DNA of 64,000 bases, from contig JBBQZX010000001.1 of NCBI GenBank assembly GCA_038207335.1, positions 160,001 to 224,000 of the forward strand. Direction: 5' to 3'. Positions 3,001-41,486 of this stretch are shown here, in pieces. The notes below the pieces were generated by a model. That model had not been told where the DNA came from. It ran no database searches and saw only the letters and a program-made list of their open reading frames with translations. Within the stretch, counting starts at the first letter, position 1. Each line of letters starts with the position of its first letter. This DNA comes from Chthoniobacterales bacterium. GTDB taxonomy: Bacteria > Verrucomicrobiota > Verrucomicrobiia > Chthoniobacterales > Chthoniobacteraceae. Both the position numbers and the translations under genes were made by a program.

Positions 3001-5926
3001 TTCACTCGCCATTACGACCGCGACGCCCGGCGCGACGATCCGATACACGACGGATGGCAGCACGCCGACGCTTACAAACGGCACGACCTACACCGGCCCG
3101 GTCCCAATCAGCGCGACGACTGCCATCCGCGCCACGGCCTTCAAGACCGGCTGGAAGCCGACGAACGTTGATACGAATACGTATATTTTCACCGCCGATG
3201 TCGCGAACCAGACTTCGGCCACTGCGATAGCGCTTGGCTTCCCATCCGGCTCGGTGAATGGCCAGGTCTTCCGATATCCGGTGGCGCTCGCAAATGTCGT
3301 GGACGCGGGCGGCGGCAAGGCGAAGACCTTCACCGATGAACTCGCCGCGATGCCGACCGTTTGCATGAGCACGGACATCGGGAATCTTGCGGACCCGGCG
3401 ACGGGGATCTACGCGAATCCGGCGAAGCACGGCCTTTTCTGGGAGCGCCCCGCCTCCATCGAATACCTCAACGCAGCCGGCGGCTCCGAGTTTCAAATCG
3501 ACTGCGGCACTCGCGTCCGCGGCGGGTACTCGCGTTCGACCAACAATCCAAAACACGCCTTTCACCTCTTCTTTCGCGGCAGCCTGTACGAGGGGGATTT
3601 GAAATATCGGCTCTTCGGCGCGGCTGGCGCGGATCATTTCAGCCAGATCGATATGCGCTGCGAAGAGAACTATTCGTGGAGCTTTGCCAACGACTCGAAG
3701 AACTTGCTCGTGCGCGAGGAGTGGAGCCGCCTCACGCAAGCAGACATGGGTCAGCCCTACGCGCGCACCGGGTACTTCCACCTCTTCATCAACGGCATTT
3801 ATTGGGGCGTGTACAATTGGGAGGAACGCACGGAAGCGTCGTTCGGCGAGACCTACCTCGGCGGCTTGAAAGACAACCAGGACACTGTGAAAAGCGCGGG
3901 CAGCCCCTCATACGACACCGAGATGACCGACGGAAACTTTGCCGCATGGAAGTCGCTCTTCGACCAGAGTGTGGCACTCAAGAACGATACGACTTCCGAG
4001 GCGAGCCGCACCGCGCGATACCTGCAAATGCGCGGGCTGAATCCCGATGGTACGCGCAACCTCGCCTACCCGGTGCTGCTTGATGTCGATAACCTCATCG
4101 ATTACCTGCTCGTGATTTTCTATGACGGCAGCTTCGACGCGCCGCTCTCCACCTTTCTCAACAACGCGTCGAACAACTGGTTCGGCGTGCGCGACCGCGC
4201 CGGGCAGAAGGGCTTTACCTACTACGCCCACGACAACGAACACGGCTTCGACAGCAACGGCGCGACGAACTCCTACAACCGTGTCGGTCCGTGGGGCGAC
4301 ACCGGCACAAACAACTGGGGCCAAGTCGAATACAACACGCGGACGACTTTCTCGAAAAGCAACCCGCAATACCTCCACGAATTCCTCTGCTACAGCGCGG
4401 AGTATCGCCTGCGCTTCGCCGACCGACTGCAAAAGCATCTCTTCAACAACGGCGCGCTCACCACGGTGAAAGCCACCGCGCGCTTCAACGCACTCGCCGA
4501 CCAAGTGGCCACCATAATCGATGCCGAGGCCGCGCGCTGGGGATCCACGTCGCTCAACCGTAACTCCTGGCTCACCGCACGCGCCGGCGGCATCACCTTC
4601 ATGAACACGGGCGGGAACGTTGCAGCCAACCATCCCGCGATGCAGGGCGGCGACCGGACAAATTTGCTGCTGCAATTTTTCCGCAGCTACACGGACAATG
4701 GTGCGAAACCGCTCTATCCTGTCACCACCACCGCGAGCAGCATCCCGCTACCGGCCTTCAACGCGCCGATCTTCACCGGGAATTTCGGCGGCCCCGTCGC
4801 CAAGCCCTACAGTTTCACCATCGGTAATTCCAACGGTGCCGGCACGATCTACTACACCACTGACGGCACCGACCCGCGCGCCATCGGCGGAGCCACGCCC
4901 TCGGGCACCGCGATCTCTGCCCAGAGCCCCGCATCCGTCACGCTCACGCAGCCCGCCACCGTCCGCGCGCGCATCTACAATGGCGCGTTGCCGACCCCGT
5001 GGAGCGCCATGACCGAGGCGAATTTCCTCGTCGGCTCCGCGCCCTCCGCCACTACGCTCGTGGTCTCGCAAATCCACTACAACCCGGCTGGCGCGACGAA
5101 TCTCACGCAGTTTATCGAGGTCATGAATATCGGCGCGATCCCGCTCGATCTGACCAATGTGCGCTTCACGCTCGGAATCACCTTCACATTCCCGAGCGGG
5201 TATATGCTCGCGCCTGGCGCGCGAGCGGTCATCGTGCGCGATCAGGCCGCATTCGCCGCGGCGTATGGCAGCAGCGTGCCGGTCGTTGGTGTTTTTCCAA
5301 GTGGCACCTTTCTCGGTCTCAGCGGCGCGCGACTGCAAATCACCAACGCCTCGAATACGATCATTCGCGACTTCACCTACGCTACCACCGCGCCGTGGCC
5401 GACTAGCCCCAACGATGGTGGGCCGAGCCTCATGCTCATCCGCCCCGAGACGAATCCCAATCCCGCCAGCGGCGCAAACTGGCGCGCGAGTTCGCTCGCC
5501 GGCGGCAATCCCAATTCCACCGACAGCTTCCGTTACAGCGCGTGGGCCGCTGCGAATAACATCACCGACCCTGCCGGCGACAACGACCGGGACGGCATCT
5601 CGAACTTCCTCGAATACGCGCTCGGCACCGACCCGAACGACCCGGCATCCGCCGATCGTCCGACTTTTGGCACTCAGGCAATCGATGTCGGCGGCACGGT
5701 TTCCGACTACCTCACGATCACTTTCCCGCGCGCCAGCAATCGCGACGACGCGACGTATTCCGCCGAGGCAACCGCCGACGTGACCACCGCTTGGAGTCCT
5801 GCCGTGCTCGTCGGTTCGCCGACTTTCAACGGTGACGGCACCGAAACGCTCACCTACCGCTACCCGCAGCCGAAGTCCACCGACGCGAGCCAATTCCTGC
5901 GACTGCGCATCACGACCGCGCCCTGA
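2..5926 (+). CDS. Giant secreted/surface protein, 5'-truncated: LamG + PA14-like x2 + Ig/PKD-like repeats + lamin-tail (LTD) + chitobiase/Fn3-associated + CotH kinase domain + second LTD
   Basis: The frame is open from nt 2 (TSTSFTLSAWIY... LamG). Motifs: WYHLAFVYD/FRGRIDDVAIY (LamG), SDDGARL twice (PA14), ISEFVADN..DEDG..DWIEI (LTD), IRYTTDGSTP, RGGYSR..PKHAF/LFINGIYWGVY..EER (CotH), C-terminal DNDRDGISNFLEYALGTDP and FLRL. Confidence 0.85.
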   Translation, partial: TSTSFTLSAWIYCTNTSGGYNTVFGNLGSGAGTLHAGLGSNVAKTHFGFDGNDVNGALTDIAGGSTSVNQPGCWYHLAFVYDSSAQTQRIFINGIPEITRTGVTNNLKISDVLIGNWNTTTDASNDFRGRIDDVAIYASALTGPQIAWLYNGGDANTLPTGSFSSAKLPGFTNAAGKWGVREIKNYTAPTNSPGIGYGVLVNAERIARAPTTTSSGVQLDYLTPLINFADPENGGASNFDNTSAFGTDTPADDNSFMMIAKCAVRIPVESDYSFGFRSDDGARLRVLGQTFISSYAINGSAGNTAIPAHLGDSIQYTTGTGNSGTMGVVHLTPGDYNLEFLYWEGSGGSYAEVFAATGAKTSFDSTFQLIGNTAAGGLEIVRDPDTYPRIPAFTVAGGGSIFVHNGLPANATFAWQTNADSLPGTTVSISPTIGTVAASGSTTIPTPAQSTTYTITVSNAVETATKTVRIFVDEAPVINSFTANRTTVTTSAPVTLNWSVDGATTLTLDPGNINVTGQTSRVVNPATTTTYTLTASNVAGSVQLPLTITVGPPPVISSFTTSDANPLYGAQVTLAWSASNFDTLSIDQGLGAVFGASGSVTVAPLVTTTYTFTATNGFGSVTASVVVNQPTPIGVNASGFTVTRYNASTSLPFTGMGYLQSADALIAGTNLSGAPITATGVTSINYSEGADGEFTPGNTAFPGTAASGVNFALRVTGILNVNTPGEYTFVLNSDDGARLRVDGQDVIVDDATHGPSSNSGKVTITKAQVPIEIVYYNAPTNGGSAGAELEFAWIRPNLQWTLLGSVTPTPPVVLGQVMISEFVADNNKSLADEDGTFADWIEIWNSTNATVNLSGYYLTDDAATPNKWAFPTGPGWTLGPNKYLVVFASQKDRRPAQAVAGQDNPGTAAQPHLHTNFKLPKGGGYLALNKDNGSGGFAPVTVFAAYPPQLTDVSYGTSDAESYLGFMQTPTPGQPNTVSFAGFVSDTNFDHARGRYTAPFSLAITTATPGATIRYTTDGSTPTLTNGTTYTGPVPISATTAIRATAFKTGWKPTNVDTNTYIFTADVANQTSATAIALGFPSGSVNGQVFRYPVALANVVDAGGGKAKTFTDELAAMPTVCMSTDIGNLADPATGIYANPAKHGLFWERPASIEYLNAAGGSEFQIDCGTRVRGGYSRSTNNPKHAFHLFFRGSLYEGDLKYRLFGAAGADHFSQIDMRCEENYSWSFANDSKNLLVREEWSRLTQADMGQPYARTGYFHLFINGIYWGVYNWEERTEASFGETYLGGLKDNQDTVKSAGSPSYDTEMTDGNFAAWKSLFDQSVALKNDTTSEASRTARYLQMRGLNPDGTRNLAYPVLLDVDNLIDYLLVIFYDGSFDAPLSTFLNNASNNWFGVRDRAGQKGFTYYAHDNEHGFDSNGATNSYNRVGPWGDTGTNNWGQVEYNTRTTFSKSNPQYLHEFLCYSAEYRLRFADRLQKHLFNNGALTTVKATARFNALADQVATIIDAEAARWGSTSLNRNSWLTARAGGITFMNTGGNVAANHPAMQGGDRTNLLLQFFRSYTDNGAKPLYPVTTTASSIPLPAFNAPIFTGNFGGPVAKPYSFTIGNSNGAGTIYYTTDGTDPRAIGGATPSGTAISAQSPASVTLTQPATVRARIYNGALPTPWSAMTEANFLVGSAPSATTLVVSQIHYNPAGATNLTQFIEVMNIGAIPLDLTNVRFTLGITFTFPSGYMLAPGARAVIVRDQAAFAAAYGSSVPVVGVFPSGTFLGLSGARLQITNASNTIIRDFTYATTAPWPTSPNDGGPSLMLIRPETNPNPASGANWRASSLAGGNPNSTDSFRYSAWAAANNITDPAGDNDRDGISNFLEYALGTDPNDPASADRPTFGTQAIDVGGTVSDYLTITFPRASNRDDATYSAEATADVTTAWSPAVLVGSPTFNGDGTETLTYRYPQPKSTDASQFLRLRITTAP

Positions 5927-15461: not shown

Positions 15462-18400
15462 ATGAGCCGACCTTTTCACATCAGCCGCTCCTCCATCGAA
15501 CCACTCGAGTCCCGAATCGCCCCGGCGGTGATCATCACGAATAACGCGGGCGCACTGAGCATCGTGAGCGATGGAGCCGGCGATACGATCGCTTTTTACG
15601 CGAAAAGTGGCGATGCGATGATGCTGGTGGTGGATGTGGACAATAATGGGTCTGCGGAACTGACTGTGGATAAGACGACGCTGACATCGATCACTGTGAC
15701 CGGTGCCGGCGGAGCGGACACGGTATTGATCGACCTGAAGAATGGCAATCCTGGACCGCTGGTGGCAGGAGCCTATACGTTTGCCTTTGATGGCGGGGGT
15801 GATGCGGGCGACAAGCTTGTCATCACGGACAGTCTCGCGACGGTGACTCCGAATTCGGCGACCGCGACATGGCGTCCGAGTAGCGCGACCAGCGCCGCCG
15901 GAAGCATTGATCTGGGGACGGGCAGCTACGGTTATACGACACTTTCGGCTGGGCTCGACGTTTCGAAAATCAGCGCGCTCTCGCTGATCACGGATGCGGG
16001 GATAGATACCTTTACATTGACGAACGGCGTCCTCTCCGGAACCGCCGGCGCGGCGTCTCATGCCTTGGTATTTTCGCAATTGCCGACGCTGACGATCGAC
16101 GTTGGATCGAAAGACGGCGCAACGGCCACGGCGGATACCGTTACGATCGCTTCTCTGACCGGTAGCGGGCTCAAGAACCTGACGGTGAGCACCGGCTCCG
16201 GCAGTGACCGACTCAATATCAATACTCCATCCCTGGTGCTCCCACAGACCGGCGGAACTTTTACTTTCGACGGTGGAAATGGAGACGATACGATCGCCCA
16301 CACCACTGGTGAAAATCTCACTCTGACCGACGCTTCGCTCGCTTCAAGCGCGGGCGGAACGGTGAGTCTCACGGGCGTGGAAAATGCGCTTTTGACCGGC
16401 GGGTCGGGCATCAACGTGTTTAACGTAAGCTCATGGCACGGCGTGGCGACTCTCGACGGTGCGGCTGGCGATGACACCTTCAACGTGACTTTCAATGGAG
16501 TGGCCGGAAGCGTGCAGATTGCGGGTGGCAGCGAAACCGACACCGTGAATCTCATCGGGACCGGAAGTAACGACTCCTTCACTATCACTGGGGGCAGTGT
16601 GGCACTGGGCGCTGAATCGGTGACTTTTGGCACGGTCGAGATGGTGAATCTCGACGCGCTCGGCGGCACGGACACTGTGACGCTGATGAACGGTGCAGTG
16701 AACGACCAGATCGTTGTGACTGCGGATAACACGGTGACCGCCGCCGGCATTCTTTTTAAGAATATCGAGGCATTCGACGCGGGCGCGGGAAGCGACACTG
16801 TGACTTTGATGACGGGTACGACTGATGAGACGATCCTCGTCACCGGCGACAATGCGGCCACTGTGCATGGGATTGCCTTCACGGGGATTGAGGCGCTCGA
16901 CGCTGGAGCTGGAAACGACACAGTGGTCCTGACGACCGGAGCGCTCGACGAGACCATCAACGTGACGGGTGACCAGGCGGCGACGGCACACCTGATTGCC
17001 TTCACGGGGATCGAGGCGCTCGACGCTGGAGCTGGAAACGACACGGTGGTGCTGATGACCGGAACAACGGACGAGACGATCAACGTGACCGGCAACAACG
17101 CGGCGACAGCGCACTTGATTGCCTTCACGAATATCGAGGCACTCGATGCGGGCGCTGGGAACGACACGGTGGTCCTGACGACAGGAGCGACCGATGAGAC
17201 GATTAGCGTGACCGGCGACAACGCGGCGACGGCACACCTGATTGCCTTTACGAATATCGAGGCACTCGACGCTGGAGCCGGAAACGACACGGTGGTGCTG
17301 ATGACTGGAACGACGGACGAGACCATCAACGTGACCGGCGACAACGCGGCGACTGCACGCCTGATTGCCTTTACGAACATTGAAGCGCTCGACGCTGGAG
17401 CTGGGAATGACACGGTGGTCCTGACGACAGGAGCGCTCGACGAGACGATCAACGTGACCGGCGACAACGCGGCGACAGCACACCTGATTGCCTTCACGAA
17501 CATCGAGGCGCTCGATGCTGGAACTGGAAACGATTCGGTGGTGCTGACGACCGGTGCGACGGACGAGACGATCAACGTGACCGGCGACAACGCGGCGACA
17601 GCGCACTTGATTGCCTTCACGAATATCGAGGCACTCGATGCGGGCGCTGGGAACGACACGGTGGTCCTGACGACAGGAGCGACCGATGAGACGATTAACG
17701 TGACGGGCGACAACGCGGCGACAGCGCACCTGATCGCATTCACGAACATCGAAAAACTCGACGCCGGAGCGGGGAGCGACACTGTCCAACTGCCGGCCAC
17801 AAATGACACCTTTACGATCACCGGGACCAACGCCGGCAGCGGCCTCGGCATCGCTTTCACGAATATCGAAGCTGTCGATGGCGGCGGGGGGATCGACACT
17901 CTGATCAACGACAGCGGAGTGAAATTTGCATCGGTGTCGCACTCGGTTGCCGGGATCACCGTCTCGAGTTTTGAGACGATCAACACCCCCGGGCTGCTCC
18001 TCACATCGGGCGATGACGACTTCACGGTGTCTGCATTCGGCGACGCCACGTTTGGAGGACAAAGCTACACCGGGCTCACCTGCGTGGATGCCCTAGGTGG
18101 CCAAGACACAATTAGAGCCACGGCTGACGCGGACTTCGTTCTCAGCGATACGCTCTTGCAGGTTGACCTCGTGACTCCGCTGCCACATCACTACGAGCTC
18201 ATGCTCGTTTCCTTCGAGAACGCAGTTCTCACCGGCGGGAGCAGCAAGAATACCTTCACGATCAACGGTTGGTCCGGCACTGGGACCTTCAATGGATTGG
18301 GTGAGGATGACTTTTTCAATATCCTAGCGTGGACGAATACCGGGACGATCAATGGTGGCGACGGAGATGATCTGGCTGATGTGTCCGGTTGGAAAGCCAA

Positions 18401-19661
18401 CGGTACCTACAACGGCGACGCTGACAGCAACACGGTCCAAGCGAAAAACGACGCGGACTTTGAATTAGCGGATGGTCCGACGTCGCCCCTCGCTGGCGCG
18501 ACGTTGAAGCGCTCGTTCCCCGGCCCGATCCTCATCACTACCGCCCTGAATGGCGTGAAGACAGCAAAACTTACCGCTGAAGGAGCGGCCAATTCATTCA
18601 CCATCTCGAAGTGGACTGGCTTGGGATCACTCACTGGGGTGGCGGGCGGGAGCAACTCGATCTTTGCGGAAAAAGACACGAATTTCGTGGTTTCTGATAC
18701 GCAGATAGCGACCTCGGTGGTCGGATCGGTAATTGCGCAGCCGAAAGTCAAGTTCAGAGGTCAGAACCATCCGGTGCCTTCGAAGGTGACATACTTGCAA
18801 AGCGGCTTGAACTTGGCGCTTGCGAACATCGCGAAGGTAACTCTCATCGGTGGGGCGTCTCAGAATTACCTCGATGCGGGTCAATTTACCGGCACGGTCA
18901 AGCTCGTCGGAATGGGCAATACCGACGTGTTGATCGCAGGCAAGGGCGACAGTCAGCTCTACGGTTTCGATGAGTCGTCGGCAGAACGCGATCCGGGAGC
19001 GGCGACCAAGATCAAGCGCAACGCCGACCACGATCATTTCTACGTCCGCGACAATCCCGGCATCGATGTGCTCGCCCAGATTTACGCGACCAACCGATCG
19101 GGGAATGTCATCCACTTCCGCGAGTCATCAGTGGCGGTGAATTACACTCTACCAACGGCACCGAAGGTGAAAAAAGGGGTGTCCAAGCCGTTGCTCCCAG
19201 ACGCAGTGGTGGCCGATGCACGGGTCAACACGAGCGGGTCAGGGAAGCTCGGAGTCTCGCTGCTGCGTGGAAGATTGCAGCATCTAGAGGGCTCTCAGTT
19301 TGATGACACGTTGAAGGGAAATAATCTTCTCAACTCTGCGTGGGGCGGAGCGGGGCGGGACACGTTCACACCAGTTGGGGCTGACTTCTTCTTCGGTGGC
19401 GATGACGGCGTGAGCGATGTCTACAATGGATTCTTCAAGTTTTACTTCGCCGATGGAGCGCTTTCGGATCCTTTGCTGACTGACGGATCCCGTGACCGGC
19501 CATTCTTTGTTGCAGATGCGGCGAAGGGCAGGAAAACCGTATACACCGAGCCATTCCTAAAATATTACGCACCGAACGCGGGCACGCCGCAGGTCGATGG
19601 CTCTGGCGAGCCTGTGTTCGAGTTGCGCCAGAGTGTGCTACCGCCTGTCGTGTCAACTTGA
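15462..19661 (+). CDS. Large extracellular adhesin-like beta-strand repeat protein with LEPR-XLL-type N-terminus and RTX-like GG-D motifs
   Basis: SIEPLESRIAPA at the N-terminus; Thr/Gly/Asp-rich; DAGAGNDT and GGAGRDT motifs; 41-aa tandem repeats. Confidence 0.8.
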   Translation: MSRPFHISRSSIEPLESRIAPAVIITNNAGALSIVSDGAGDTIAFYAKSGDAMMLVVDVDNNGSAELTVDKTTLTSITVTGAGGADTVLIDLKNGNPGPLVAGAYTFAFDGGGDAGDKLVITDSLATVTPNSATATWRPSSATSAAGSIDLGTGSYGYTTLSAGLDVSKISALSLITDAGIDTFTLTNGVLSGTAGAASHALVFSQLPTLTIDVGSKDGATATADTVTIASLTGSGLKNLTVSTGSGSDRLNINTPSLVLPQTGGTFTFDGGNGDDTIAHTTGENLTLTDASLASSAGGTVSLTGVENALLTGGSGINVFNVSSWHGVATLDGAAGDDTFNVTFNGVAGSVQIAGGSETDTVNLIGTGSNDSFTITGGSVALGAESVTFGTVEMVNLDALGGTDTVTLMNGAVNDQIVVTADNTVTAAGILFKNIEAFDAGAGSDTVTLMTGTTDETILVTGDNAATVHGIAFTGIEALDAGAGNDTVVLTTGALDETINVTGDQAATAHLIAFTGIEALDAGAGNDTVVLMTGTTDETINVTGNNAATAHLIAFTNIEALDAGAGNDTVVLTTGATDETISVTGDNAATAHLIAFTNIEALDAGAGNDTVVLMTGTTDETINVTGDNAATARLIAFTNIEALDAGAGNDTVVLTTGALDETINVTGDNAATAHLIAFTNIEALDAGTGNDSVVLTTGATDETINVTGDNAATAHLIAFTNIEALDAGAGNDTVVLTTGATDETINVTGDNAATAHLIAFTNIEKLDAGAGSDTVQLPATNDTFTITGTNAGSGLGIAFTNIEAVDGGGGIDTLINDSGVKFASVSHSVAGITVSSFETINTPGLLLTSGDDDFTVSAFGDATFGGQSYTGLTCVDALGGQDTIRATADADFVLSDTLLQVDLVTPLPHHYELMLVSFENAVLTGGSSKNTFTINGWSGTGTFNGLGEDDFFNILAWTNTGTINGGDGDDLADVSGWKANGTYNGDADSNTVQAKNDADFELADGPTSPLAGATLKRSFPGPILITTALNGVKTAKLTAEGAANSFTISKWTGLGSLTGVAGGSNSIFAEKDTNFVVSDTQIATSVVGSVIAQPKVKFRGQNHPVPSKVTYLQSGLNLALANIAKVTLIGGASQNYLDAGQFTGTVKLVGMGNTDVLIAGKGDSQLYGFDESSAERDPGAATKIKRNADHDHFYVRDNPGIDVLAQIYATNRSGNVIHFRESSVAVNYTLPTAPKVKKGVSKPLLPDAVVADARVNTSGSGKLGVSLLRGRLQHLEGSQFDDTLKGNNLLNSAWGGAGRDTFTPVGADFFFGGDDGVSDVYNGFFKFYFADGALSDPLLTDGSRDRPFFVADAAKGRKTVYTEPFLKYYAPNAGTPQVDGSGEPVFELRQSVLPPVVST
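16749..17855 (+). repeat. About 9 tandem 123-bp (41-aa) intragenic repeats
   Basis: Unit IAFTNIEALDAGAGNDTVVLTTGATDETINVTGDNAATAHL starts at 16749 (divergent copy), 16872, 16995, 17118, 17241, 17364, 17487, 17610 and 17733. Confidence 0.95.
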
Positions 19662-19849
19662 AATAAAGGTTCGCCCCGTCCCGAGGAGGCTTGAAAACGA
19701 CTCAACGATTGAGCTGCACGACGAAATCTCGCCGACACTCCTCGGGGTGAACGAGGCGAGGATGCTACTTCAGTTCAAATGATGACGATTTCCTGTGTTA
19801 TCGCTGGAATGCGAGGGCATGGCTGTTGCAGAGTTTCGCCTGTCTTTCG

Positions 19850-22800
19850 ATGGATAGCCGTCTCATTCCCGACAATTTTGGAGATTACGTAACGCTGCGC
19901 GATCAGGCGGGCGCGCCGATCATTTTGGGTTCGGGCGGGTTTGGCACGACGATTTGCGCGTCCCGATCCCGTCTGTTGGGCGGGGCTGAAATCCGGGACG
20001 ATTGCGCGATCAAAATCCTGCATCACCAGGCGATTCAGGATCCGAAGCGGCGCAGTCAGTTTGTTTCGGAGATCCTGGCGCTGCGCGATTTGGCGCATCC
20101 GAATCTGGTGCGATACGTCGATTGCGGCGAGCGGGATGGGCTGATTTATCTCGTGATGGAGCTGTGCCGCGGCGGCGATTTGGAGCGGTTTGTGACCGAT
20201 TGGGGGCCGTTCGGGGAGCGGGCTGCGCTGAGTTCGGTGCTTCAGGTTTCCGAGGGTTTGAAGGAAGCGCATCGCAAGAACTACCTCCACCGCGACCTGA
20301 AGCCGCGGAACGTTTTGCTGTTGGAGTCAGTGCCTCCCACTGCGAATTTGAATTGGTTCGAGAATGCGATTGTCGAGGGCAGGCTGTGTTTCAAAGTCGT
20401 CGATTTCGGGCTCGCGGGTCGCTTGGGCGGCGATGTGCGGACGAGCGGTTTTGCGGGGTCTCCGATGTTTTGCAGCCCAGAGCAGGTGCGTGAGCGGGAG
20501 CTCGATTTTCGAAGCGATATTTATTCGCTCGGGATGACGCTCTGGTACCTAGTCGCGGGCTGCGGTCCGTTGGTTCGCCCAGATGGGCGGCCTGTCGAGG
20601 ATTCGCGCGAGGCGATGAAGGCGCACACATCGCCGGTGCCCCACGACAATTCCTTCCCGAAGCGCCTTTCGCCGGAGTTCCGTGATGTGCTGAGCCGGAT
20701 GGTGCGGAAGTCTCCGGACGAGCGATTTTCCTCTCTGCAAGATCTCATCGTCGCCATCCGGCAGGTCTTGAGCGACCCCGGTTTGGTGCCGGATCTCGGT
20801 GCCCCGGTCGGCGACACTTCCTTAGAGCCCACCGAGCCTTCGCTCGTAGATCAACCGGAATGGGCGGCAGGGGAGTGCGACGATTTCTTTCTCGGTAGGA
20901 TGGAATGTGGCCGCCGATCGGTGGGAAAATTTTACCGCGCGACATCGTTTCAGACGAAACGCGCGGTGGGCTTGACCGCTTGGGTGCCCGGGATTTCGCC
21001 CGACGCGATGAGCGAGCATCAGCTCGCCGAGCATCTGCAGCGCATCAAACGCGTGACATCTTCCGCTCTTGCGCCGATGAGCCTGACGGCGATTTCGGAG
21101 GTGCGCCGCACGGCCGGGGAGTGGTGCGTGGCGGAGGAATGGCAGGATGGGGTGCCGCTGGAGGATTTGATCGCGCGCCGCGGGCGGTCCCTCTCCATCG
21201 AGGAAATCGCGCTCGTGCTGGCACCGGTCGCGGAGGCCGCAGATTTTTTGCTCCGGAATAAGATCGACACCGCGCTGTTGACGATCTCCGACATCCGGCT
21301 GTGCGGCGTCGGCTCGTCGACTGCGGATCGCGGGTGGCTGGAGCAGCCGGTGGAGCGTTGGGAGAATTTGAACGTGCAAGTCAGCGCGTTGACCATTCCG
21401 TCGGGGCTGGCAGGGCAGGCGATCGAGAGGGCACCCGTCGGAGGAACAATTGCGAGTTCATTTTCCGGGAGTGCTGATGCCTCCTACACGATCGGGAAAT
21501 CGTTCTGCCGGCTTTTTTATCGGATGGTGGAGGGCTCGGAAGTCGCCGGGGCGGCCGATTGGGATGAGTATTCCTATATTGAAGCGAACCGGTTAAGCGC
21601 GGCGTCGAATGTCCTCCTGCGCCGCGCCATCTGCGGAGCGGAGGAAGTCGAGTCCGTGAGCGGTTTGCTTCGCCGCATTTGTGCCAATGAGGGCGTTTAC
21701 CGGATTTCGAGCACGGTGACGACACGGGTCGGTCGCACTAGCACCACGTCCGACACCAGAGAATCGACGGCATCACAGTCCGAAAAGCTAGAGCCCATGC
21801 CGCCGCGCGCATCGGTTCGTCCGCCCGAGCCCGTCGCGCCCGTGGTGTCGCAGGTTATACCGCCGATCCGGGTTTCCAATCCTGGGGTTTCCGTGCAAAA
21901 GAGCGCGCCGATCGCACCGGCACCGTCGGTGGTCAACGCGTCGATCTCGCTGCCACCCGAAATCTCGCGGACGCGGCCCACGATCGCGGGCCCGACCATG
22001 ACGATGGAGCTCGAGGTGGCGCGACTCGTGCCAGGCCTGGCCGGAATGGTCCGCAGCCCGTACGGCGAGCGGCGGGAGCAGCGTGTGAGCGGCCCAAACT
22101 GGCGCGGCGACGCGCGGATTTATTGTGAAGAGACGAGCCGACTCTTTAAACTGCCGCGCGTCCTGCCTCCGCTTGAGGCGGAGTTAATCGAAGGCCGCTA
22201 CGACGCCGTTATCTCGCCCTACGTCGAGCCGCGCCGTGAGGTTCCGGTTCCCCTCGGTCGATGGAAGCCCGAGGAGGAAATCACGTGCGGCTCCACGGGT
22301 CTGCCGATTCTTCTCCCGAGCGAGCTGCCGGCCGCATTGGGCAGCCTGATCTCCGGGAAACCCGGCTTCGCGCGCTCTCCGTACGGTGCGCAGCGCGAAA
22401 CGGCGATCCCACCCGAAGAATGGCGTCCGAACCAACGGGTCACGTGCGCAGAGTCGGCCCAGACGTTCTTTTTGCCAGCGGCACTCCCCGCGCTGCACGC
22501 GATCCCGACCGAAGTGCCCGGCTGCTTCACCTCGCCGTATGCGCCGGAGGAGCGCTTCACGCTTCAGCCGCACGAGTGCGTCGCCGGGTTCGAGTTCGAG
22601 TGCCCATCGACCGAGAAGCCGCTGATGGTATCGACGAATTTGCCAGCGGCATGGAAGTTTGAAGGCCGTGTGAGGCAGGGCGCGGTACCGGAGGCTCAAA
22701 GCCCTTTCACCGCTGCTTCCGAGCCCGACCGCTGGCAAGCGCTGGCGGCCGCACAGTGGAAGCCGGAGGCCGTGATTCGCTGCGCAGTGACGGGGAAGGA

Positions 22801-25800
22801 GTTCGTCCTCCCGGGAGAGCTACCCGCGCTGTCGGTGAAAATCGCGCCATCGGCACCCGCTGTCCTTTCCCCGTTTGCGCCGCACGACCGCATCCCCGTC
22901 GCCGCGCTGGAATGGCAGGCCGGCGCGAAAATCACGCTTCAGCTTCCGGGAGGCGTTTCCTGCCAGGGGACTCTCCCCGAGGGCGATCTGCCGCCCGTCC
23001 CGGCGATCGCGGGAGAACTCGCCGGCACGTTCGATTCCCCGTTTTGCCCCGGCAAACATTTCTCGCTCGCGCCTTGGGATTGCATCCCGGATGCCGCGTT
23101 CCCGTGCCCTTTTACCCGAAGGCCGCTGGTGCTGCCGAGTGTGATGCCCTCAGACTGGAAGTGGGAGGCAGTGCTTCGGCAAAGATCCGTGCCCGAGGCG
23201 CGCTCCCCTTTTATCCCAGAAAGTGACGCCGCTGAGACCGATTCGCCGGATCAGTCGCTCGCCGAGACGCAGGTGGAAACAAGCGACGACTGGCAACCGA
23301 TCGCCGCGTCGGAATGGAAGCCCGGCCTGGCGATCCGCTGCCGCGCGACGGGCCGGCAATTTTATCTCCCTGCCGAGTTGCCAGTTCTGCACGTTGAGCA
23401 GGGGCCGGTGGCACCGAGCATCCTTTCGCCCTTCCGCCCGCACGAGATCATCGCTATTCCGCCGGCTTCGTGGAGGCGCACCGTGGCGGTGCAAGTCCGG
23501 CTTCCCTCCGGCGTGCCGTGCCGAGTCGTGCTGCCTGACGACGTCCTTCCGCTCGGCCGCGCCGAACTCGCCGACCTGCCGCTGCTGCCGCTCGGCTTCG
23601 ACCCGCAATTGCGCGCGCGCCGCGGTGCCATCCGCAGCCCGCACGGCGAGAAAACGTGGGTCGATGTCGCCAACAAAGACTGGCTGCCCGGCGCGCGGCT
23701 GATTTGCCCCACCACCCAGCAGCCTTTTTGGCTCCCTGCGGAATTGCCACCTCTCGAGGCCCGCATCGGGTCGGCCTCCGGCTCCGTCTGGTCGCCCTAC
23801 ACGGATACCGCCGTGCAGATTCCCGCGAACCGCTGGAATCCCGGCGAGGCGATCCGCTGTGCGGAAACGGGCGGATGGTTCGTCCTGCCAGCGGAACTCC
23901 CACTTCTGATCGGTCGCACTGATGAGCGGCAGCCCGGCATGGTGGAATCACCATTCGCACCGGGTGAATTTTTTCGCGCCCCAGTGGACGCGTGGCGTCC
24001 GGGCAATGCGATCTTGTGTCCCCAGAGCAAACGCAAATTTGCGCTCCCGGCGGAACTCCCGGAGTGGCTCGCCGACGTGGAGGTCGTTGCGCCCGCGCTC
24101 GGGATGGTGCGCAGCCCGTACGGCGCGCGCGTCGCATTCAAAGTTCCGGGCGAACAGTGGGCCGCTGGCGGCATCATCAACTGCGCGCAAACCACTCAAC
24201 GCGCCCGGTTGCCCGACGATCTGCCGCCGATGGACGCCGTCGTCGTGGAGTCAACCCCCGGCGTCATCCAGACCCCTTACACAGAGCGCGCCTCCGGGCA
24301 GAAAATCAGCCGCAGTGAATGGAAGGCAGGTCGTACTATCCGATGCGCCGCCACCGGGCGCCCCCTGCGCCTCCCGGATACTCTTCCCGCGCTAAACGAA
24401 GTCACATTCCCAACACGCACAATCCTGACCGCTAGCGCTGTTGCGCTCGCCGTGCTTGGCCTCGTCGCCGGTGGCTACAAATATCTTCACGGCAAAGGCG
24501 GACAGCCGCTGACGTTGTTGCCGGATGGAGCCACGCCGAAGCCTGGGAAATTAAAGGAGTGGCCAAAGACATTCACGTTTCTCGATGGGATTCGTCCCCC
24601 ACCCGCAACGGTCGCTCTGGTGGCGGATAACGTTGCGAGTTGGGACGTCAAGCCACACATGCAGGGGGTCACCGTTGAGTTCGCTCTCGATGAGCCGATG
24701 GCCGACAAGCGCTTCTTAAGGGCCAATGCGCTCTCGCTCGTTCTTGCGAAGCCCGGATACGTTCCCAAAACGGTTGCGATCAAACGTGGAGAGAGCGTCA
24801 TTCCAGAAATGGTGCCTCTCGTCCGCGAGACCGGCGCGGTATCTGCGACCTCGGTGGTTCCGCCGGCACCATTCTACAGTGCTGCCCGGCTCACCATGGT
24901 CGCAATGCCCGACGACACGCCTGCCGACGAGACGAAACCGTACGAATTGCCACTCGGACCGGGTGAAAGCGTCGTAGTGAAAACCGGGCGCTACAGGGTC
25001 GAACTAGTCGGCCCAAAAAATTCGGGCGGAGTCACGGTGTCCGATCGAAAGCTGGTCGAGATCATGGTGAAGGCAAGTCCGGAATCCCGCATCACGATAC
25101 CACGCTTCGATATCCCCAAAGTGCTATCCGGCTACACGACCGTGACGTGGGAAAACTTTCAGTCTTACATCTTCCGGTCTCTAGACGCGCCCAAGGTCGC
25201 GGGGACCTTGGAATTTTGCAACTTCAACACGTGGAGTGCTTTCCTGCTACGGTTTGACCCTGATTTTACCAAGGGCGAACTCTACGAGACCAATGGTTGC
25301 GTCTCTTCCGCCCTCATCGTTGGTGCCTTGAATAACTTGATCGCCAAGCCGCCCGACAAGGAAAAGGATTTGGCGACCGCAAAAGCCAAGGAGCTGCTCG
25401 AGGCGATCAACTTGCCTGCCAGCGCGGAGGGTGCGCAATCCAATATCGATAAGGCGCTTAGCGCTTTCACGGCGCTGCGCGCCCTCGATCAGAAAAATTC
25501 TGGCCCCTCACTCGCGCCTCTGCGCTCACTCTGCAGCACCTACGCGGAACTCATGGCCGCAACAAAAACAACGAGTGGAACGCCGACGGTGGCTTGGCAA
25601 CATCTAATGAAGGCCTGCATTTTTGGGGGCGCTGTGTCCGATGCTGAACTGGCCGAACTGTCGAAGCCGCTCCCGGATGGCGCTCGTGGCTATTTGGTGA
25701 GGAGTCCGTTCAAGGTGATTCAATGCCTCGAGAATGGTGATATTAGACTCAGCATCCAGCGTCATCGGTTCGAAGACGACAAAGTAGCTTTCGTCGAATG

Positions 25801-25912
25801 GAGCCCCGTCCTGCACCTCGAACGCATTCCTTCCGGCGGGCTGAAGTGGAAGCCTTTGGAAAAGTGGAACGATGCGGTGCGTGAGTTTCATTTCGTAGTG
25901 GGGACGCAATAA
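19850..25912 (+). CDS. Giant Hanks-type Ser/Thr kinase: kinase + pseudokinase + Pro-rich linker + 14 Cys-containing repeats + TM helix + extracytoplasmic domain
   Basis: LGSGGFG, CAIKIL, HPNLV, HRDLKPRN, VDFG, GSPMFCSPEQ, SDIYSLG; TM ILTASAVALAVLGLVAGGY at about 24422-24480. Confidence 0.9.
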   Translation: MDSRLIPDNFGDYVTLRDQAGAPIILGSGGFGTTICASRSRLLGGAEIRDDCAIKILHHQAIQDPKRRSQFVSEILALRDLAHPNLVRYVDCGERDGLIYLVMELCRGGDLERFVTDWGPFGERAALSSVLQVSEGLKEAHRKNYLHRDLKPRNVLLLESVPPTANLNWFENAIVEGRLCFKVVDFGLAGRLGGDVRTSGFAGSPMFCSPEQVRERELDFRSDIYSLGMTLWYLVAGCGPLVRPDGRPVEDSREAMKAHTSPVPHDNSFPKRLSPEFRDVLSRMVRKSPDERFSSLQDLIVAIRQVLSDPGLVPDLGAPVGDTSLEPTEPSLVDQPEWAAGECDDFFLGRMECGRRSVGKFYRATSFQTKRAVGLTAWVPGISPDAMSEHQLAEHLQRIKRVTSSALAPMSLTAISEVRRTAGEWCVAEEWQDGVPLEDLIARRGRSLSIEEIALVLAPVAEAADFLLRNKIDTALLTISDIRLCGVGSSTADRGWLEQPVERWENLNVQVSALTIPSGLAGQAIERAPVGGTIASSFSGSADASYTIGKSFCRLFYRMVEGSEVAGAADWDEYSYIEANRLSAASNVLLRRAICGAEEVESVSGLLRRICANEGVYRISSTVTTRVGRTSTTSDTRESTASQSEKLEPMPPRASVRPPEPVAPVVSQVIPPIRVSNPGVSVQKSAPIAPAPSVVNASISLPPEISRTRPTIAGPTMTMELEVARLVPGLAGMVRSPYGERREQRVSGPNWRGDARIYCEETSRLFKLPRVLPPLEAELIEGRYDAVISPYVEPRREVPVPLGRWKPEEEITCGSTGLPILLPSELPAALGSLISGKPGFARSPYGAQRETAIPPEEWRPNQRVTCAESAQTFFLPAALPALHAIPTEVPGCFTSPYAPEERFTLQPHECVAGFEFECPSTEKPLMVSTNLPAAWKFEGRVRQGAVPEAQSPFTAASEPDRWQALAAAQWKPEAVIRCAVTGKEFVLPGELPALSVKIAPSAPAVLSPFAPHDRIPVAALEWQAGAKITLQLPGGVSCQGTLPEGDLPPVPAIAGELAGTFDSPFCPGKHFSLAPWDCIPDAAFPCPFTRRPLVLPSVMPSDWKWEAVLRQRSVPEARSPFIPESDAAETDSPDQSLAETQVETSDDWQPIAASEWKPGLAIRCRATGRQFYLPAELPVLHVEQGPVAPSILSPFRPHEIIAIPPASWRRTVAVQVRLPSGVPCRVVLPDDVLPLGRAELADLPLLPLGFDPQLRARRGAIRSPHGEKTWVDVANKDWLPGARLICPTTQQPFWLPAELPPLEARIGSASGSVWSPYTDTAVQIPANRWNPGEAIRCAETGGWFVLPAELPLLIGRTDERQPGMVESPFAPGEFFRAPVDAWRPGNAILCPQSKRKFALPAELPEWLADVEVVAPALGMVRSPYGARVAFKVPGEQWAAGGIINCAQTTQRARLPDDLPPMDAVVVESTPGVIQTPYTERASGQKISRSEWKAGRTIRCAATGRPLRLPDTLPALNEVTFPTRTILTASAVALAVLGLVAGGYKYLHGKGGQPLTLLPDGATPKPGKLKEWPKTFTFLDGIRPPPATVALVADNVASWDVKPHMQGVTVEFALDEPMADKRFLRANALSLVLAKPGYVPKTVAIKRGESVIPEMVPLVRETGAVSATSVVPPAPFYSAARLTMVAMPDDTPADETKPYELPLGPGESVVVKTGRYRVELVGPKNSGGVTVSDRKLVEIMVKASPESRITIPRFDIPKVLSGYTTVTWENFQSYIFRSLDAPKVAGTLEFCNFNTWSAFLLRFDPDFTKGELYETNGCVSSALIVGALNNLIAKPPDKEKDLATAKAKELLEAINLPASAEGAQSNIDKALSAFTALRALDQKNSGPSLAPLRSLCSTYAELMAATKTTSGTPTVAWQHLMKACIFGGAVSDAELAELSKPLPDGARGYLVRSPFKVIQCLENGDIRLSIQRHRFEDDKVAFVEWSPVLHLERIPSGGLKWKPLEKWNDAVREFHFVVGTQ
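22019..24397 (+). repeat. 14 degenerate ~51-57 aa protein repeats (two with insertions) inside the kinase
   Basis: Recurrent SP[YFH]...W.[PA]G..I.C..TG..F.LP.ELP in the translation. Confidence 0.9.
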
Positions 25913-26377
25913 TCCGAAATCTTGTGGCTTGGACTCGCAAGGCCGCAAACTCGCAAAGGAGGCACGACTCCTCATGGAAGTGCCGCAGCATGCCGCCCGT
26001 GCGCGGAACCAAGGTCCCCGGCCCGGTCCGCCAACGCCCGTAGCAGGCTTGCGGCTTCCGCGGCGATAGAGAGGTGCAGTGAAAGTCCACATGCCGTTGG
26101 GAATTCTATCCGTCTGCGTGGCTTTCGGTAACGTTCGGTGGACGCCGCTGGAGCTCGACCACCTCTATCCGGCTAGTGCCGCTGCGTGATGAGCGGCGGG
26201 GCCTCTTCGACCGAACAATTCGCGAGAATAGCCAATGCTCCCGGTCGAATCGTCCCATGGTCAACCTATCCAATGTAACCTGCTGTCTCCGTGGCGCTTT
26301 CGGCTTGTGCAACACCCCCTGCGCGTAAACGCCGAAATCCGATGTACTCAAAAAAAATCGGGCCGGTGTTTTTTTGG

Positions 26378-26406
26378 TTGACGCTCTCTTACCACGTGAG
26401 TACCGA
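26378..26406 (+). promoter_or_regulatory. Possible sigma70-like promoter
   Basis: TTGACG-17 nt-TACCGA, 9 nt before ATG 26416 and preceded by an A8...T7 inverted repeat. Confidence 0.35.
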
Positions 26407-26415
26407 GTGCGCCCC

Positions 26416-29094
26416 ATGCCTAAGCCCAACAAATCCGTAAAGTTCAGGAACGCGGGAACAGCCCGATTTGTTTGCAACGGCCGGATTGACGCCTTCTTGA
26501 AAGCAACGCCCGCCATTGTCGCATTTTGTCTTGTATCGACTGACTCTCGAGCGGCGACGCTGCTTTCAAGCGACCAATTGGGCGGTGTGGCGGGGTCCGT
26601 TCCAAGTGCGCCACCGGCGATGGTAGATAACGGCGGCGGTCGTATCGTGAGTGCCACTCAGCCGCTCGGAGCAGGGAGCGTGAGCGCTGGCGCACCGGCC
26701 TCGACCGCGGCAAATGTGAGCCAGTCGAGCGGCTACTCCGGTCGTTCCTCAGATAACCAGGAGTCAACCCGCCGGGTCCGTGAAAGCGGTGGCGGCGGAG
26801 GTGGCCGCACCCAGACCCGCTCGCGCGCCAACCACGAAGATCAGGAGTCCCGCGAACCGCGCGGAGGCGGACGAGTCGGCTCGCAGACCGCGGAAGCACC
26901 TGCCTCCGAGGGCAAAACGGAAGTCACTGTCACCACCGCGCGCTCTCCTTGGAGCGCGCAGTTCGGTGCAGGATACTACACCGCATACCAATCGTTCCGC
27001 GGTGTCAATATTCTCGATTCCGCTTCTGCCGACAAAGGCGGCGGAGTCGTCACCGGCTCTGCCAAAGTGGGCTATGCGCGCACTAACGACGCATTCACGA
27101 TCGGCTTCAACTATTGGCAGGCTCTCACGCGGCAGACGCCAGAGGGGGGGCAATTCAACGTGCCTCCAAATAGCAATCGCAAAACCCAACAGAATTTCAG
27201 CCTCCCGTCAAAGGACCGTTACGCTGAGTATAACCTCAACCTAGCCTACACGCGCAACTTCTTCGACGGTAAAGTTGTGGGGACACTCGGATACAACCAC
27301 TTCCATTTCTCGAATAAGCAGTATTACGATTCAGATCAATCGCCCATCGGCTACGCGAACGAAATCACACTGGGCTTTGCCTACACGCCGATCCCGCACA
27401 TCCAGCCTTCCATCTTCTGGGCGCATGACTTCGACGGTTTCAAAGGCGACTACGTCGAACTCCGCGTGGACGGCGCATATCAACTCCCTGCGATCCGCGG
27501 TTTTTCGGTCGGCCTGCGCCCATACGCAGCATTGTCTTACGACTTCAAATACAATGGAAGCGACAATGGATGGAACGCTTTCGAGGTCGGCCTCAGCGTT
27601 CCAGTTCGCGTGACGAGTTTCCTGACAGTGAGCCCGACCGTGAATTACGTGTTGGCACTTGAAGATTCGAACGGCGGCCCGCGCGCCAGCGACGGCTTGT
27701 GGGGCGGCATTCGGGTGACGGTGGATTGGGCAGGTGATCCGCCGAAACCAGCGCTGCCGGGATCATCCGCAAAAGAAGCCAAAATCGTCCTCGCAGAACC
27801 TGGCGAACATCCGTGGGAAATCTCGGTAGGAGCCGGCTGGCGTCAAGTCAACTACAGCTTCGATCACCACTCGCTGTCGCCATTCCCCACGAAGAGTTTG
27901 TTTCGTGCAAGCAAGAACGACGGTGAGCTCGGGTTTGCCACAGCGGGTCGAGTGCAAACTTACGATAATGGCGCTATCGACGCTCGCACTCCGGCTGTAA
28001 ATCCGGCTCGCAATGTCGCTGTGCCGGGCACAGCAGCTTTCAGTGTGGACAATCAATCTCAATTGTTTGGATCGCAGGTCCGTTTTAAGAGCGATCGGTT
28101 TTCTCAGGCGGAAAGTCATTCAGCAGTTAACTCAAACTACGACGATCAAGACTCGGTTGTTAGTCCATATATAGATATGGATCGGGAGGTTTGGCGCTCT
28201 GGTCAATTTAGTGCCCGCGTTGGCCTCTTGTATTCCTTTACGGCTTCGGAGGGGGACAGTGGCTACCGACTCGGTCGGCTGGATCAGTTGAAGCAGCGAA
28301 CAGATACGAGTGGATTTGTGTATTCAGTTGATTCTTTCGCTTCCAACTCGAGCGGAGCGCAGGTGCAAAATCTTGTTGTAAGTCCCAGTGCCTACACATC
28401 GTTCTTTACGACAGCCGGGCTCACTATCCAAGGAGATTTCACGCCCCAAGCAGAATCCTCGAGTCGGGTTCAAGAAGTTGTTCTAGTTGGAACATTTGTT
28501 CGTTCAAATTTAGAATTGTATTCGCACGATTTAGCTATTCCTCTTAGCGCGCGCTTTGACTTCGGAAATCGACTGCACGCTGAAGTCACCGTGGCTCCGA
28601 CGATCACTTTTGCAAACGCGGAAATCTCAACTGATGTCGAGAGCCGAGCGTTTTCCAGTCTTACTACTGGAAAGGTGGGTATCCAGTCTCAAGCCGTAAT
28701 GCGATCTGCGCCCACGCTCAGTGGCCCCGCTGGCCGATCATCACCAGTTCCTTCGAGCCCTAACGCTCCCGCTCCGACGTCAACTTCTAAGCCGCCTTCA
28801 GTAGCAACTAGTCCTTCCCCTGGCGGAGGAAAGTCTGCAAAACCCAAATCACCCGACTATCCTGGCACTGTAGTGGCGCGGAGTCGGTTTAAGGAATCTT
28901 CGACTGAGGTTTTGTTTGGGGTGAGTTTGGGTGGGTCGTTGATTTTGGATTTGAATGAAGATCGGACGTTTTACGCCGAGATTTGGGGGCGGTATCACTG
29001 GGTGCAGGATTTTTCGATCAGCAATGGATTTGCGAGTTCGAATGTCGATCTGAGCAGTTTCCAAATGGGCGTCGGCGTTGGATATCGCTTTTAA
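26416..29094 (+). CDS. Outer-membrane beta-barrel protein with apparently two barrel domains
   Basis: Alternating aromatic/Gly strands (EYNLNLAYT, ITLGFAY, FEVGLSVP; second set WEISVGAGW, FGVSLGGSL) and terminal GVGVGYRF. Start uncertain (ATG 26416 or TTG 26497). Confidence 0.75.
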   Translation: MPKPNKSVKFRNAGTARFVCNGRIDAFLKATPAIVAFCLVSTDSRAATLLSSDQLGGVAGSVPSAPPAMVDNGGGRIVSATQPLGAGSVSAGAPASTAANVSQSSGYSGRSSDNQESTRRVRESGGGGGGRTQTRSRANHEDQESREPRGGGRVGSQTAEAPASEGKTEVTVTTARSPWSAQFGAGYYTAYQSFRGVNILDSASADKGGGVVTGSAKVGYARTNDAFTIGFNYWQALTRQTPEGGQFNVPPNSNRKTQQNFSLPSKDRYAEYNLNLAYTRNFFDGKVVGTLGYNHFHFSNKQYYDSDQSPIGYANEITLGFAYTPIPHIQPSIFWAHDFDGFKGDYVELRVDGAYQLPAIRGFSVGLRPYAALSYDFKYNGSDNGWNAFEVGLSVPVRVTSFLTVSPTVNYVLALEDSNGGPRASDGLWGGIRVTVDWAGDPPKPALPGSSAKEAKIVLAEPGEHPWEISVGAGWRQVNYSFDHHSLSPFPTKSLFRASKNDGELGFATAGRVQTYDNGAIDARTPAVNPARNVAVPGTAAFSVDNQSQLFGSQVRFKSDRFSQAESHSAVNSNYDDQDSVVSPYIDMDREVWRSGQFSARVGLLYSFTASEGDSGYRLGRLDQLKQRTDTSGFVYSVDSFASNSSGAQVQNLVVSPSAYTSFFTTAGLTIQGDFTPQAESSSRVQEVVLVGTFVRSNLELYSHDLAIPLSARFDFGNRLHAEVTVAPTITFANAEISTDVESRAFSSLTTGKVGIQSQAVMRSAPTLSGPAGRSSPVPSSPNAPAPTSTSKPPSVATSPSPGGGKSAKPKSPDYPGTVVARSRFKESSTEVLFGVSLGGSLILDLNEDRTFYAEIWGRYHWVQDFSISNGFASSNVDLSSFQMGVGVGYRF

Positions 29095-29303
29095 CCTCCT
29101 TCGTTCAGTTCATATGATTCGCCCGACGGTGTTGGTAGAGATTTTGAGGCACGCTATACTTCGCTTGCGTCCGTCGCGACTGCCTGCGTGTTGAACTTAC
29201 TCGCTCGTGAAAAATCTCCGATTCCGATCGCGGCTCTTGTGAAAATGTCGCTGGCTCGCTGAATCGAGAGGCGAATCGTTTGACTCTTTCCGATGGTAGC
29301 AAA

Positions 29304-30146
29304 GTGAGAAAGCAAGCGATTGGGCTGGTGTGCGCGAGTTTAGCGGTCGGACTTTGGGGTTGGCTTCTGACGCATGATCGCGGCGAGGTGATTCCCGCTC
29401 GAGCTGCGCAGGGGGCGGAGGAGGACGTGAAACCAGTGGTGAGCGCGATCGCCGAGCGGCAAGCTGATGAACATGTTTCAGGCAACTCCGCTGAAACCAA
29501 GGCAACGGAGGGCGCTCGCACCGTCCTGACCGACCGCGAGGTGGCGCGGAATGCGACTGCACTCGCGCAGGAAGGGAAATTCAAGGAGGCGAAGGAGCTC
29601 GTCGAAGAAATCGGGAAACGTTCGGGGGACGGAGCGGTGTATTTTGAGTTGAAAGGGACGGTGCTGACTCTGGAGAAGGATTACGCGGGTGCGGAGGTGA
29701 GTTTTTCGAAGATGCTCGAGCGGCAGCCGAATTCGCATGTCGCGCGGTTCAATCGGGCGGAGACGATCATGCTGCAGGGCCGCTTCGCAGAGGCGGAGAA
29801 GGAGTTTGCTCTTGTCGAGGAGGAGCGCAGTGCGGTCGATGCACCGGTGTCGGCGCTGGCGCGATTTAAACGTGTGGCCTGCCTGCTCGGGCAGCGGCAG
29901 GTGATGGCGGCGGCGTTGCTGGTGCCGCCGGTGCGCGAGGCGGAGGAAATTCCGGCGTTTTACTACGCTAGGGCGATGATCGAATGGGTGCGCAAAGACC
30001 CCCAGGCTGCGAACAAGCTGTTGAGCGAGGCGCGCTCAAAATTTCCGCCGAGTGTGGATGACCTCTACACTGACACGTTTGTGGAGTTGCACTGGGGGCG
30101 GCGGGATGAATCCGGAAAGTTCAGCTTTTCTCCTGGGTTTCGATAG
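29304..30146 (+). CDS. Membrane-anchored tetratricopeptide repeat protein
   Basis: N-terminal TM followed by TPR-like helices (YFELKGTVL..KDYAGAE..F, ARFNRAE..GRFAEA). GTG start inferred. Confidence 0.75.
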   Translation: MRKQAIGLVCASLAVGLWGWLLTHDRGEVIPARAAQGAEEDVKPVVSAIAERQADEHVSGNSAETKATEGARTVLTDREVARNATALAQEGKFKEAKELVEEIGKRSGDGAVYFELKGTVLTLEKDYAGAEVSFSKMLERQPNSHVARFNRAETIMLQGRFAEAEKEFALVEEERSAVDAPVSALARFKRVACLLGQRQVMAAALLVPPVREAEEIPAFYYARAMIEWVRKDPQAANKLLSEARSKFPPSVDDLYTDTFVELHWGRRDESGKFSFSPGFR

Positions 30147-35688: not shown

Positions 35689-41352
<5,664 letters not shown>

Positions 41353-41486
41353 GAAAAAGGCCGGAAAGCTCGCGCGCCTCGCGGCGATTTGCAACCGGAG
41401 CAACGGAACGCAGCAAATGGGCCGAGCGCTGCTTTTCTGTTTTCCTGCCCCGGCGAATCCGGCACACCGCTCGCGCCCCACGCACC

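Follow-up and report, generated by a model that had tools for sequence, protein, structure and literature searches.

A 14-unit array of predicted zinc-ribbon-like domains in a giant receptor-like kinase of a Chthoniobacterales bacterium, and the same domain in predicted exported proteins

We analysed a stretch of 64,000 nucleotides from a Chthoniobacterales bacterium (assembly GCA_038207335.1, contig JBBQZX010000001.1, positions 160,001 to 224,000), referred to as the window. The subject is a gene for a giant receptor-like Hanks kinase that carries 14 small tandem units between its kinase domains and its only predicted transmembrane (TM) helix. The gene and its parts are listed in window coordinates, with amino acid (aa) numbers of the protein (HMM, hidden Markov model):

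19826..25912, plus strand: giant receptor-like Hanks kinase gene, 2028 aa (open reading frame)
19925..20734, plus strand: Pkinase domain, aa 34-303 (Pfam Pkinase, E 2.4e-43)
20867..21685, plus strand: pseudokinase, about aa 348-620 (94.2% by hhalign over 261 columns, compared with the kinase domain of the same family)
21710..22030, plus strand: Pro/Ser/Thr/Val-rich linker, aa 629-735 (27 Ser and Thr in 107 aa)
22019..24403, plus strand: array of 14 ribbon-like units (anchors, HMM, structure models)
22055, 22214, 22376, 22532, 22700, 22868, 23036, 23204, 23426, 23636, 23792, 23948, 24113 and 24272, plus strand: SP anchors of units 1-14
22514..23617, plus strand: block duplication, units 4-6 copied as units 7-9 (scores 129, 142, 111)
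24419..24475, plus strand: single predicted TM helix, aa 1532-1550 (Kyte-Doolittle 1.99)
24488..25909, plus strand: predicted extracytoplasmic region of ~470 aa (no family found)

Read from the translation, the glycine-loop, catalytic-loop and DFG motifs of the Pkinase domain are all intact, and the pseudokinase has neither HRD nor DFG. An earlier interpretation made without database searches (the sequence-only reading) had spoken of kinase domains in the plural, which is correct. The protein thus shows the features of a receptor-type Hanks kinase, namely intact catalytic motifs and a single TM helix, and like PknB and Stk1 it has an N-terminal kinase, one TM helix and a C-terminal outer region. 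It differs from them by the added pseudokinase, by ∼800 aa of repeats inside the cell compared to PASTA repeats outside, and by an outer domain of no known family; for aa 1569-2028 there was no Pfam family at E ≤ 1. The model NF033483 covers the kinase alone (149.8 bits against a cut-off of 450), and no PASTA repeats were found. The linker is likely disordered and may serve as an autophosphorylation region. In the same genome (G000) the kinase motif HxD[LIV]KPxN occurs in 21 open reading frames, several of them grouped on contig C4, and the array is present solely in the kinase of the window.

We counted 14 [ST]P[YFH] anchors within nucleotides 22055-24272. Successive anchors are 53, 54, 52, 56, 56, 56, 56, 74, 70, 52, 52, 55 and 53 aa apart, so 11 of the 13 spacings are 52-56 aa, in agreement with the 51-57 aa that the sequence-only reading gave for most units. 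When set against 2000 shuffles, 69 of the 91 unit pairs scored beyond the 99th percentile (mean 60.9 compared to 22.7). An HMM that we trained on 30 units taken from two other genomes recovered all 14 units with domain E-values from 7.5e-18 to 3.4e-5. Thus the array is not a product of chance, and the 14-copy repeat that had been proposed, with unit 11 as its example, is real. A Cys in every unit had also been claimed. All 14 units do hold one, but only 12 have it at the conserved column; units 6 and 9 show Leu there and their Cys lies elsewhere. Trp was rightly described as present in most units, as it occupies its column in 12 of 14, with Cys instead in units 4 and 7. Unit 7 holds three Cys and unit 8 has an acidic insert. 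No DNA-level tandem repeat was detected within the array, which argues against an assembly artefact. The true fold unit probably starts about 16 residues before the SP, as stand-alone relatives end at an F-x-[VL]-P motif.

A search with the array returned 41 proteins including the query's own entry. Homologues share 50-61% identity across the array and the same 14 units, and the few named ones belong to Chthoniobacter, Verrucomicrobiaceae or Verrucomicrobiales. The unit HMM gave 187 matches among 1.84 billion representatives, the best 150 of which were listed; about 12 Ig-like matches among these 150 were discarded by eye. Adding the 16 best new proteins to the 41 resulted in 57 array proteins with 9-37 contiguous units each. 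Long arrays occur in 5 of 61 related genomes. A search of 400 genomes, in which 16 candidates were scored for each genome, lacks the sensitivity for counting arrays, and a related-locus search using the array as query found none. A separate observation concerns P0043 (1656 aa), which has 29 units with a four-unit period and a C-terminal hydrophobic helix, and no kinase.

We infer a cytoplasmic array from the presence of the kinase and from the lack of a second predicted TM helix. The best hydrophobic segment N-terminal to aa 1532 scores 1.52 on the Kyte-Doolittle scale and falls within the pseudokinase, and across the 57 array proteins we found no conserved hydrophobic segment N-terminal to the array. 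The TM helix follows the array in 51 of the 57 proteins with a median gap of 9 aa, which agrees with the earlier placement on the kinase side of a sole TM helix; five of the remaining six end inside the array or score low and one is cut at a long gap. The charge rule favoured an inside N-terminus in 28 of 46 cases and an inside C-terminus in 10, with 8 ties, and the window's own protein is not among the 28. After the TM helix there are 46 further degenerate units, spread over 13 of the 57 proteins.

In the predicted models each unit forms two beta-hairpins separated by a short helix and has an extra N-terminal strand, and the packing between units is fixed. The core of the model follows the order beta-beta-alpha-beta-beta, with knuckles 23 residues apart as in ZitP-type ribbons. 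On these models the units are predicted to be ∼53-residue ZitP-type zinc-ribbon-like domains without three of the four zinc ligands. Caulobacter ZitP (PF13719 zinc_ribbon_5; PDB 2nb9) and the zinc ribbon (ZnR) of Myxococcus GltJ have in common with the units the predicted two-hairpin core with a short helix, the spacing of 23, an aromatic at the W35 position and a location at the cytoplasmic face of membrane proteins. The units differ from them in having one Cys (or Asp) compared to four, an extra N-terminal strand, no HMM match, 9-37 tandem copies compared to one and a fusion to a kinase and a pseudokinase, and in occurring in predicted exported proteins as well. With one Cys per unit, the CxxC x2 signature of the ZitP/MJ0042 ribbons is absent. 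LysW, Dph3/Dph4 CSL and IBR-type zinc ribbons also count among the closest known systems. The domains D8/D9 of E. coli TopA, Topo_C_Rpt (PF13368) and Cren7/Sul7 set a precedent for losing Cys ligands while the fold is kept and for tandem use; in contrast to the units they bind DNA and are not membrane or exported proteins, and there is no Pfam match between them. According to published work, the knuckle Cys of ZitP are C5/C28 with a spacing of 23 (PMC5182065), ribbons act as protein binders on the cytoplasmic side (ZitP binds PopZ, and the GltJ ribbon its own linker or MglB), zinc was lost and the fold kept in TopA D8/D9, Topo_C_Rpt and Cren7, and Topo_C_Rpt reaches at most 4 copies among the rows listed, compared to 9-37 units here (papers on these comparisons: PMC5182065, PMC11135422, PMC4678816, PMC5906684, PMC9369019, PMC7159879).

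Scans of the protein, its units and relatives against Pfam and NCBIfam gave no unit-level family, and no unit matched WD40, TPR, PASTA, NHL, LRR or FHA in Pfam, in line with the sequence-only reading, which had recognised none of these in the unit. The HMMs PF13719, PF13717 and TIGR02098 matched none of the 14 kinase units and none of 69 lipoprotein-type units (see below) at E ≤ 10 within the HMMER filters, and PF13368 and PF08272 (Topo_C_Rpt/TopA ribbon) did not match the units either. Profile-profile comparison with four-Cys ribbons, based on sets of 7, 15 and 24 sequences, reached 48-88% for lipoprotein units and 7.5-46% for kinase units, in the C-terminal half only. Foldseek with both models returned nothing at E ≤ 0.001; no known wall-binding domain was prominent among the structural matches, and TopA-like ribbons were not among the structural rows listed. 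The ESM Atlas gave no usable match for the array and just Verrucomicrobiota clusters for a lipoprotein, and a PDB search with a local four-Cys ribbon failed to retrieve ZitP. Several candidates were rejected. The PDB sequence search (best E 0.0011) yielded immunoglobulin constant domains, which share only a W..G...C piece, and otherwise a few scattered weak rows. In two long homologues the cut-offs of DUF2093 (PF09866; P0011, 25.9 against a cut-off of 25) and Trm112p (PF03966; P0003, 33.5 against a cut-off of 22) were reached by summing 14-residue pieces, no stretch of which passes alone. Our verdict is an uncatalogued family that is predicted to be a variant of a known fold and stands outside the four-Cys ZnR family.

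For the residues at the knuckles we examined 969 kinase-side units. At the first knuckle 826 of them have Ser, 60 Asn, 36 Thr, 15 Asp and 7 Cys, so Ser is exchanged for Asn or Asp 75 times compared to 36 times for Thr. The second knuckle is Cys in 832 units, and three residues further on we observed Thr in 639 or Ser in 188. Just 8 of the 969 units hold more than one Cys when all four knuckle sites are counted. The mean charge per unit is −0.04 (sd 2.7, 300 units).

Two things lay beyond the view of the sequence-only reading: the likeness of the unit to a zinc ribbon stripped of its ligands, and its occurrence chiefly in proteins predicted to be exported. Among the matches listed for the unit HMM, 57 weaker ones are shorter than 720 aa and mostly hold 2-3 copies joined by Pro/Lys-rich linkers; most of them have a lipobox-like N-terminus, and their profile matches the kinase-unit profile at 98.6%. 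The common form is a predicted lipoprotein of 120-200 aa with the domain at its extreme C-terminus, usually encoded beside tyrA and aroA; these and other neighbours gave no functional clue. Some of the lipoproteins carry the source label 'uncharacterized Zn-finger protein'. A DNA pattern for the second knuckle occurs at 121 loci or more. Verrucomicrobiota appear in 75 of the 80 titles listed and other taxa in 2, and one of these two suggests mis-binning, because the protein it encodes starts with 40 residues that hardly differ from those of verrucomicrobial proteins. A lipobox pattern was present at 45 of 121 loci, all 45 among the 80 with long flanks, and of 32 aligned proteins at least 90% keep Cys23, the putative lipobox Cys. 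With a mixed HMM we detected the domain in all 61 genomes of the order (weakest E 1.8e-4) and in none of 40 genomes of other classes. A lipoprotein HMM found it in 80 of the 151 genomes searched from the class, among them 18 of 19 that were added for the order, and yielded at least 2,723 protein clusters from 7,993 candidates; none of the 120 clusters listed has a Pfam domain. Each of two 0.9-Mb genomes retains one copy, and a protein identical to the copy in G058 is source-named Candidatus Xiphinematobacter sp.

The VDV strand and the second aromatic set the kinase units apart from the lipoprotein copies. The spacing of the knuckles has its mode at 23 in kinase units and is 22 in 62 of 69 lipoprotein-type units. 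Among 33 non-kinase copies, taken from the 31 best-scoring loci with kinase arrays and one partial match omitted and found by an HMM that biases toward Cys, 19 have Cys and 14 Asp. The domain is also C-terminal in glycine-zipper lipoproteins (whose N-terminal part matches a YiaD glycine-zipper/OmpA model), in M56-secretin fusions and in one TPR protein. L196, L197 and L202 are M56-like proteins with a terminal domain, L196 being a BlaR1/M56 peptidase-secretin fusion. P0101, P0116 and P0136 have two units each and about 1080-1100 aa; P0101 is an FHA-ABC transporter with its units between membrane segments. A homodimer prediction for the lipoprotein domain scored 0.00, with controls not folded. 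The genome of the window encodes two small predicted lipoproteins with one terminal copy each, L218 (G000:C17:85931-86701) and L226 (G000:C3:33060-33515), both with Asp in place of Cys. L218 precedes tyrA/aroA and represents the order-wide form, and L226 has a glycine zipper. Lipoproteins of these types are probably a more important object for follow-up than the kinase array. Five divergent lipoprotein copies (family f20, L234-L238) all have Asp; a gene of 634-658 aa adjoins four of these five loci, and the scan of one such gene identified a lipid A acyltransferase that also matches GT9 weakly.

On balance we consider it somewhat more likely than not that the array is a metal-free rigid stalk and docking scaffold, because the units are neutral, their predicted packing is fixed, copy number varies by block duplication and the array abuts the TM helix. 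Of the roles that the sequence-only reading had offered, the scaffold is thus the best. The stalk would hold the kinase-pseudokinase head away from the membrane and likely present repeated candidate protein-docking surfaces along its length, and a signal from the outer domain could travel down the stalk or gather partners on it. Ser, Asn, Thr, Asp or Cys before Pro is a signature of turn capping (Asx/ST turns). Ser, Asn, Asp or Thr at the first knuckle and Cys or Asp at the second may cap the hairpin turns by hydrogen bonds and so replace zinc. As the knuckle substitutions fit turn capping and few units have two or more Cys, a four-ligand zinc site appears unlikely and the SP dipeptide is best read as structural. 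The domain may have originated as a widespread envelope lipoprotein and then been recruited and amplified in kinases, a direction that we infer from the wider spread of the lipoprotein. One observation weighs against this reading of the knuckle residues: the conserved Cys is kept in 832 of 969 units inside the cell compared to 3 of 46 after the TM helix, although the latter units are degenerate in general.

The best surviving alternative, which we regard as rather unlikely, is that the domain binds an envelope ligand such as a peptidoglycan fragment or other glycan; exported copies would anchor proteins to the wall, and the cytoplasmic array would sense precursors or recycling products by avidity. 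Wall-binding domains often sit at the extreme C-terminus. This is where one to three copies stand in the lipoproteins, behind a Pro-rich tether, and where the domain ends otherwise unrelated envelope proteins, and aromatics are conserved after both knuckles. However, known wall-binding domains did not stand out structurally, the kinase units have diverged from the lipoprotein units, including at the second of these aromatics, and up to 37 cytoplasmic copies are hard to explain by sensing alone.

The sequence-only reading had proposed that the unit may bind metal or sense redox through its Cys. We consider it improbable that the Cys coordinates metal, be it together with Ser/Thr/Asp or across units, or that it controls the kinase as a redox switch. 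The loss of the Cys after the TM helix, its position at a ZitP zinc ligand and the three Cys of unit 7 speak for it. However, the post-TM units are degenerate throughout, with the second knuckle often wholly lost, there is one Cys per unit with so few exceptions, and Asp replaces it in many non-kinase copies and in every f20 copy. The same reading had also suggested an array of SP phospho-acceptor sites. Ser or Thr precedes the Pro in most units of a chain with an intact kinase, but Asn and Asp together outnumber Thr, as in turn caps, and SP is kept without exception in the 69 copies compared from proteins that are mostly predicted to be exported, including one of Methylacidiphilum fumariolicum (L084). 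The genome paper of M. infernorum, from the same genus, reports no Ser/Thr kinases (PMC2474590). The Ser/Thr-rich linker is the likelier target, and we give the SP sites very little credence. Equally far-fetched is an array that binds DNA or RNA like the zinc-free ribbons of TopA D8/D9 and Cren7 and ties the nucleoid to the membrane, given neutral units and a family found mainly in predicted exported proteins.

The kinase gene lies within a cluster:

15462..19661, plus strand: 1399-aa beta-rich repeat protein upstream of the kinase (no family over cut-off)
26374..29094, plus strand: 906-aa protein of no known family, downstream of the kinase (follows the kinase in G008, G015 and G591)
29280..30146, plus strand: TPR protein, last gene of the conserved cluster (Pfam TPR_19, E 4.2e-11)

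The 1399-aa protein has an N-terminal motif that we take to be LEPRxLL-like and, at 16760-17782, a tandem repeat with a period of 123 bp (41 aa) in 8.3 copies, an expansion much more recent than the kinase array. Relatives of this protein are found in the same cluster in G008, G015 and G591, so that a large repeat protein, the kinase, the 906-aa protein and the TPR protein occur together in these three genomes and in G000. In G591 the kinase (L231:6865-14230) is split over at least three reading frames by sequencing error or decay. In G032 the 906-aa and TPR genes are well separated from the kinase gene, and G015 has two additional array loci that are without both. The 906-aa protein, which by its C-terminal end may be outer-membrane-like, turned up in just 4 of the 81 family genomes, and each of these also has an array. 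The co-occurrence of the cluster genes with the array kinase suggests a surface-protein system under kinase control. Elsewhere in the window, positions 161-5926 encode a 1921-aa protein with LamG, PA14, lamin-tail, Fn3-associated and CotH kinase domains, a recognisable secreted architecture, and positions 35689-41481 hold a 1930-aa open reading frame that presumably consists of two fused UvrA-like halves.

In the literature covered, which did not include subscription journals, we found no description of the repeat or the lipoprotein; the domain-architecture survey in figs S3-S4 of PMC11135422 could bear on novelty. Pfam and NCBIfam have no entry for this domain family, which numbers at least 2,723 protein clusters. 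Its tiny predicted lipoprotein is kept in nearly all searched genomes of one bacterial order and offers a tangible target, suited to cloning, for work on the verrucomicrobial envelope, which is poorly understood. Repeats of receptor kinases are normally outside the cell. If the proposed ancestry holds, a cytoplasmic metal-binding fold would have been adapted to export with its ligands swapped for turn caps, and the exported fold would then have returned to the cell interior, where receptor kinases use it as a stalk of variable length. More tentatively, the metal-free ribbon might be a core envelope tether of Verrucomicrobiae (Pal/LpoB-like) that giant kinases reuse on both membrane faces, with 9-37 rigidly packed copies as a ruler for the distance between head and membrane.

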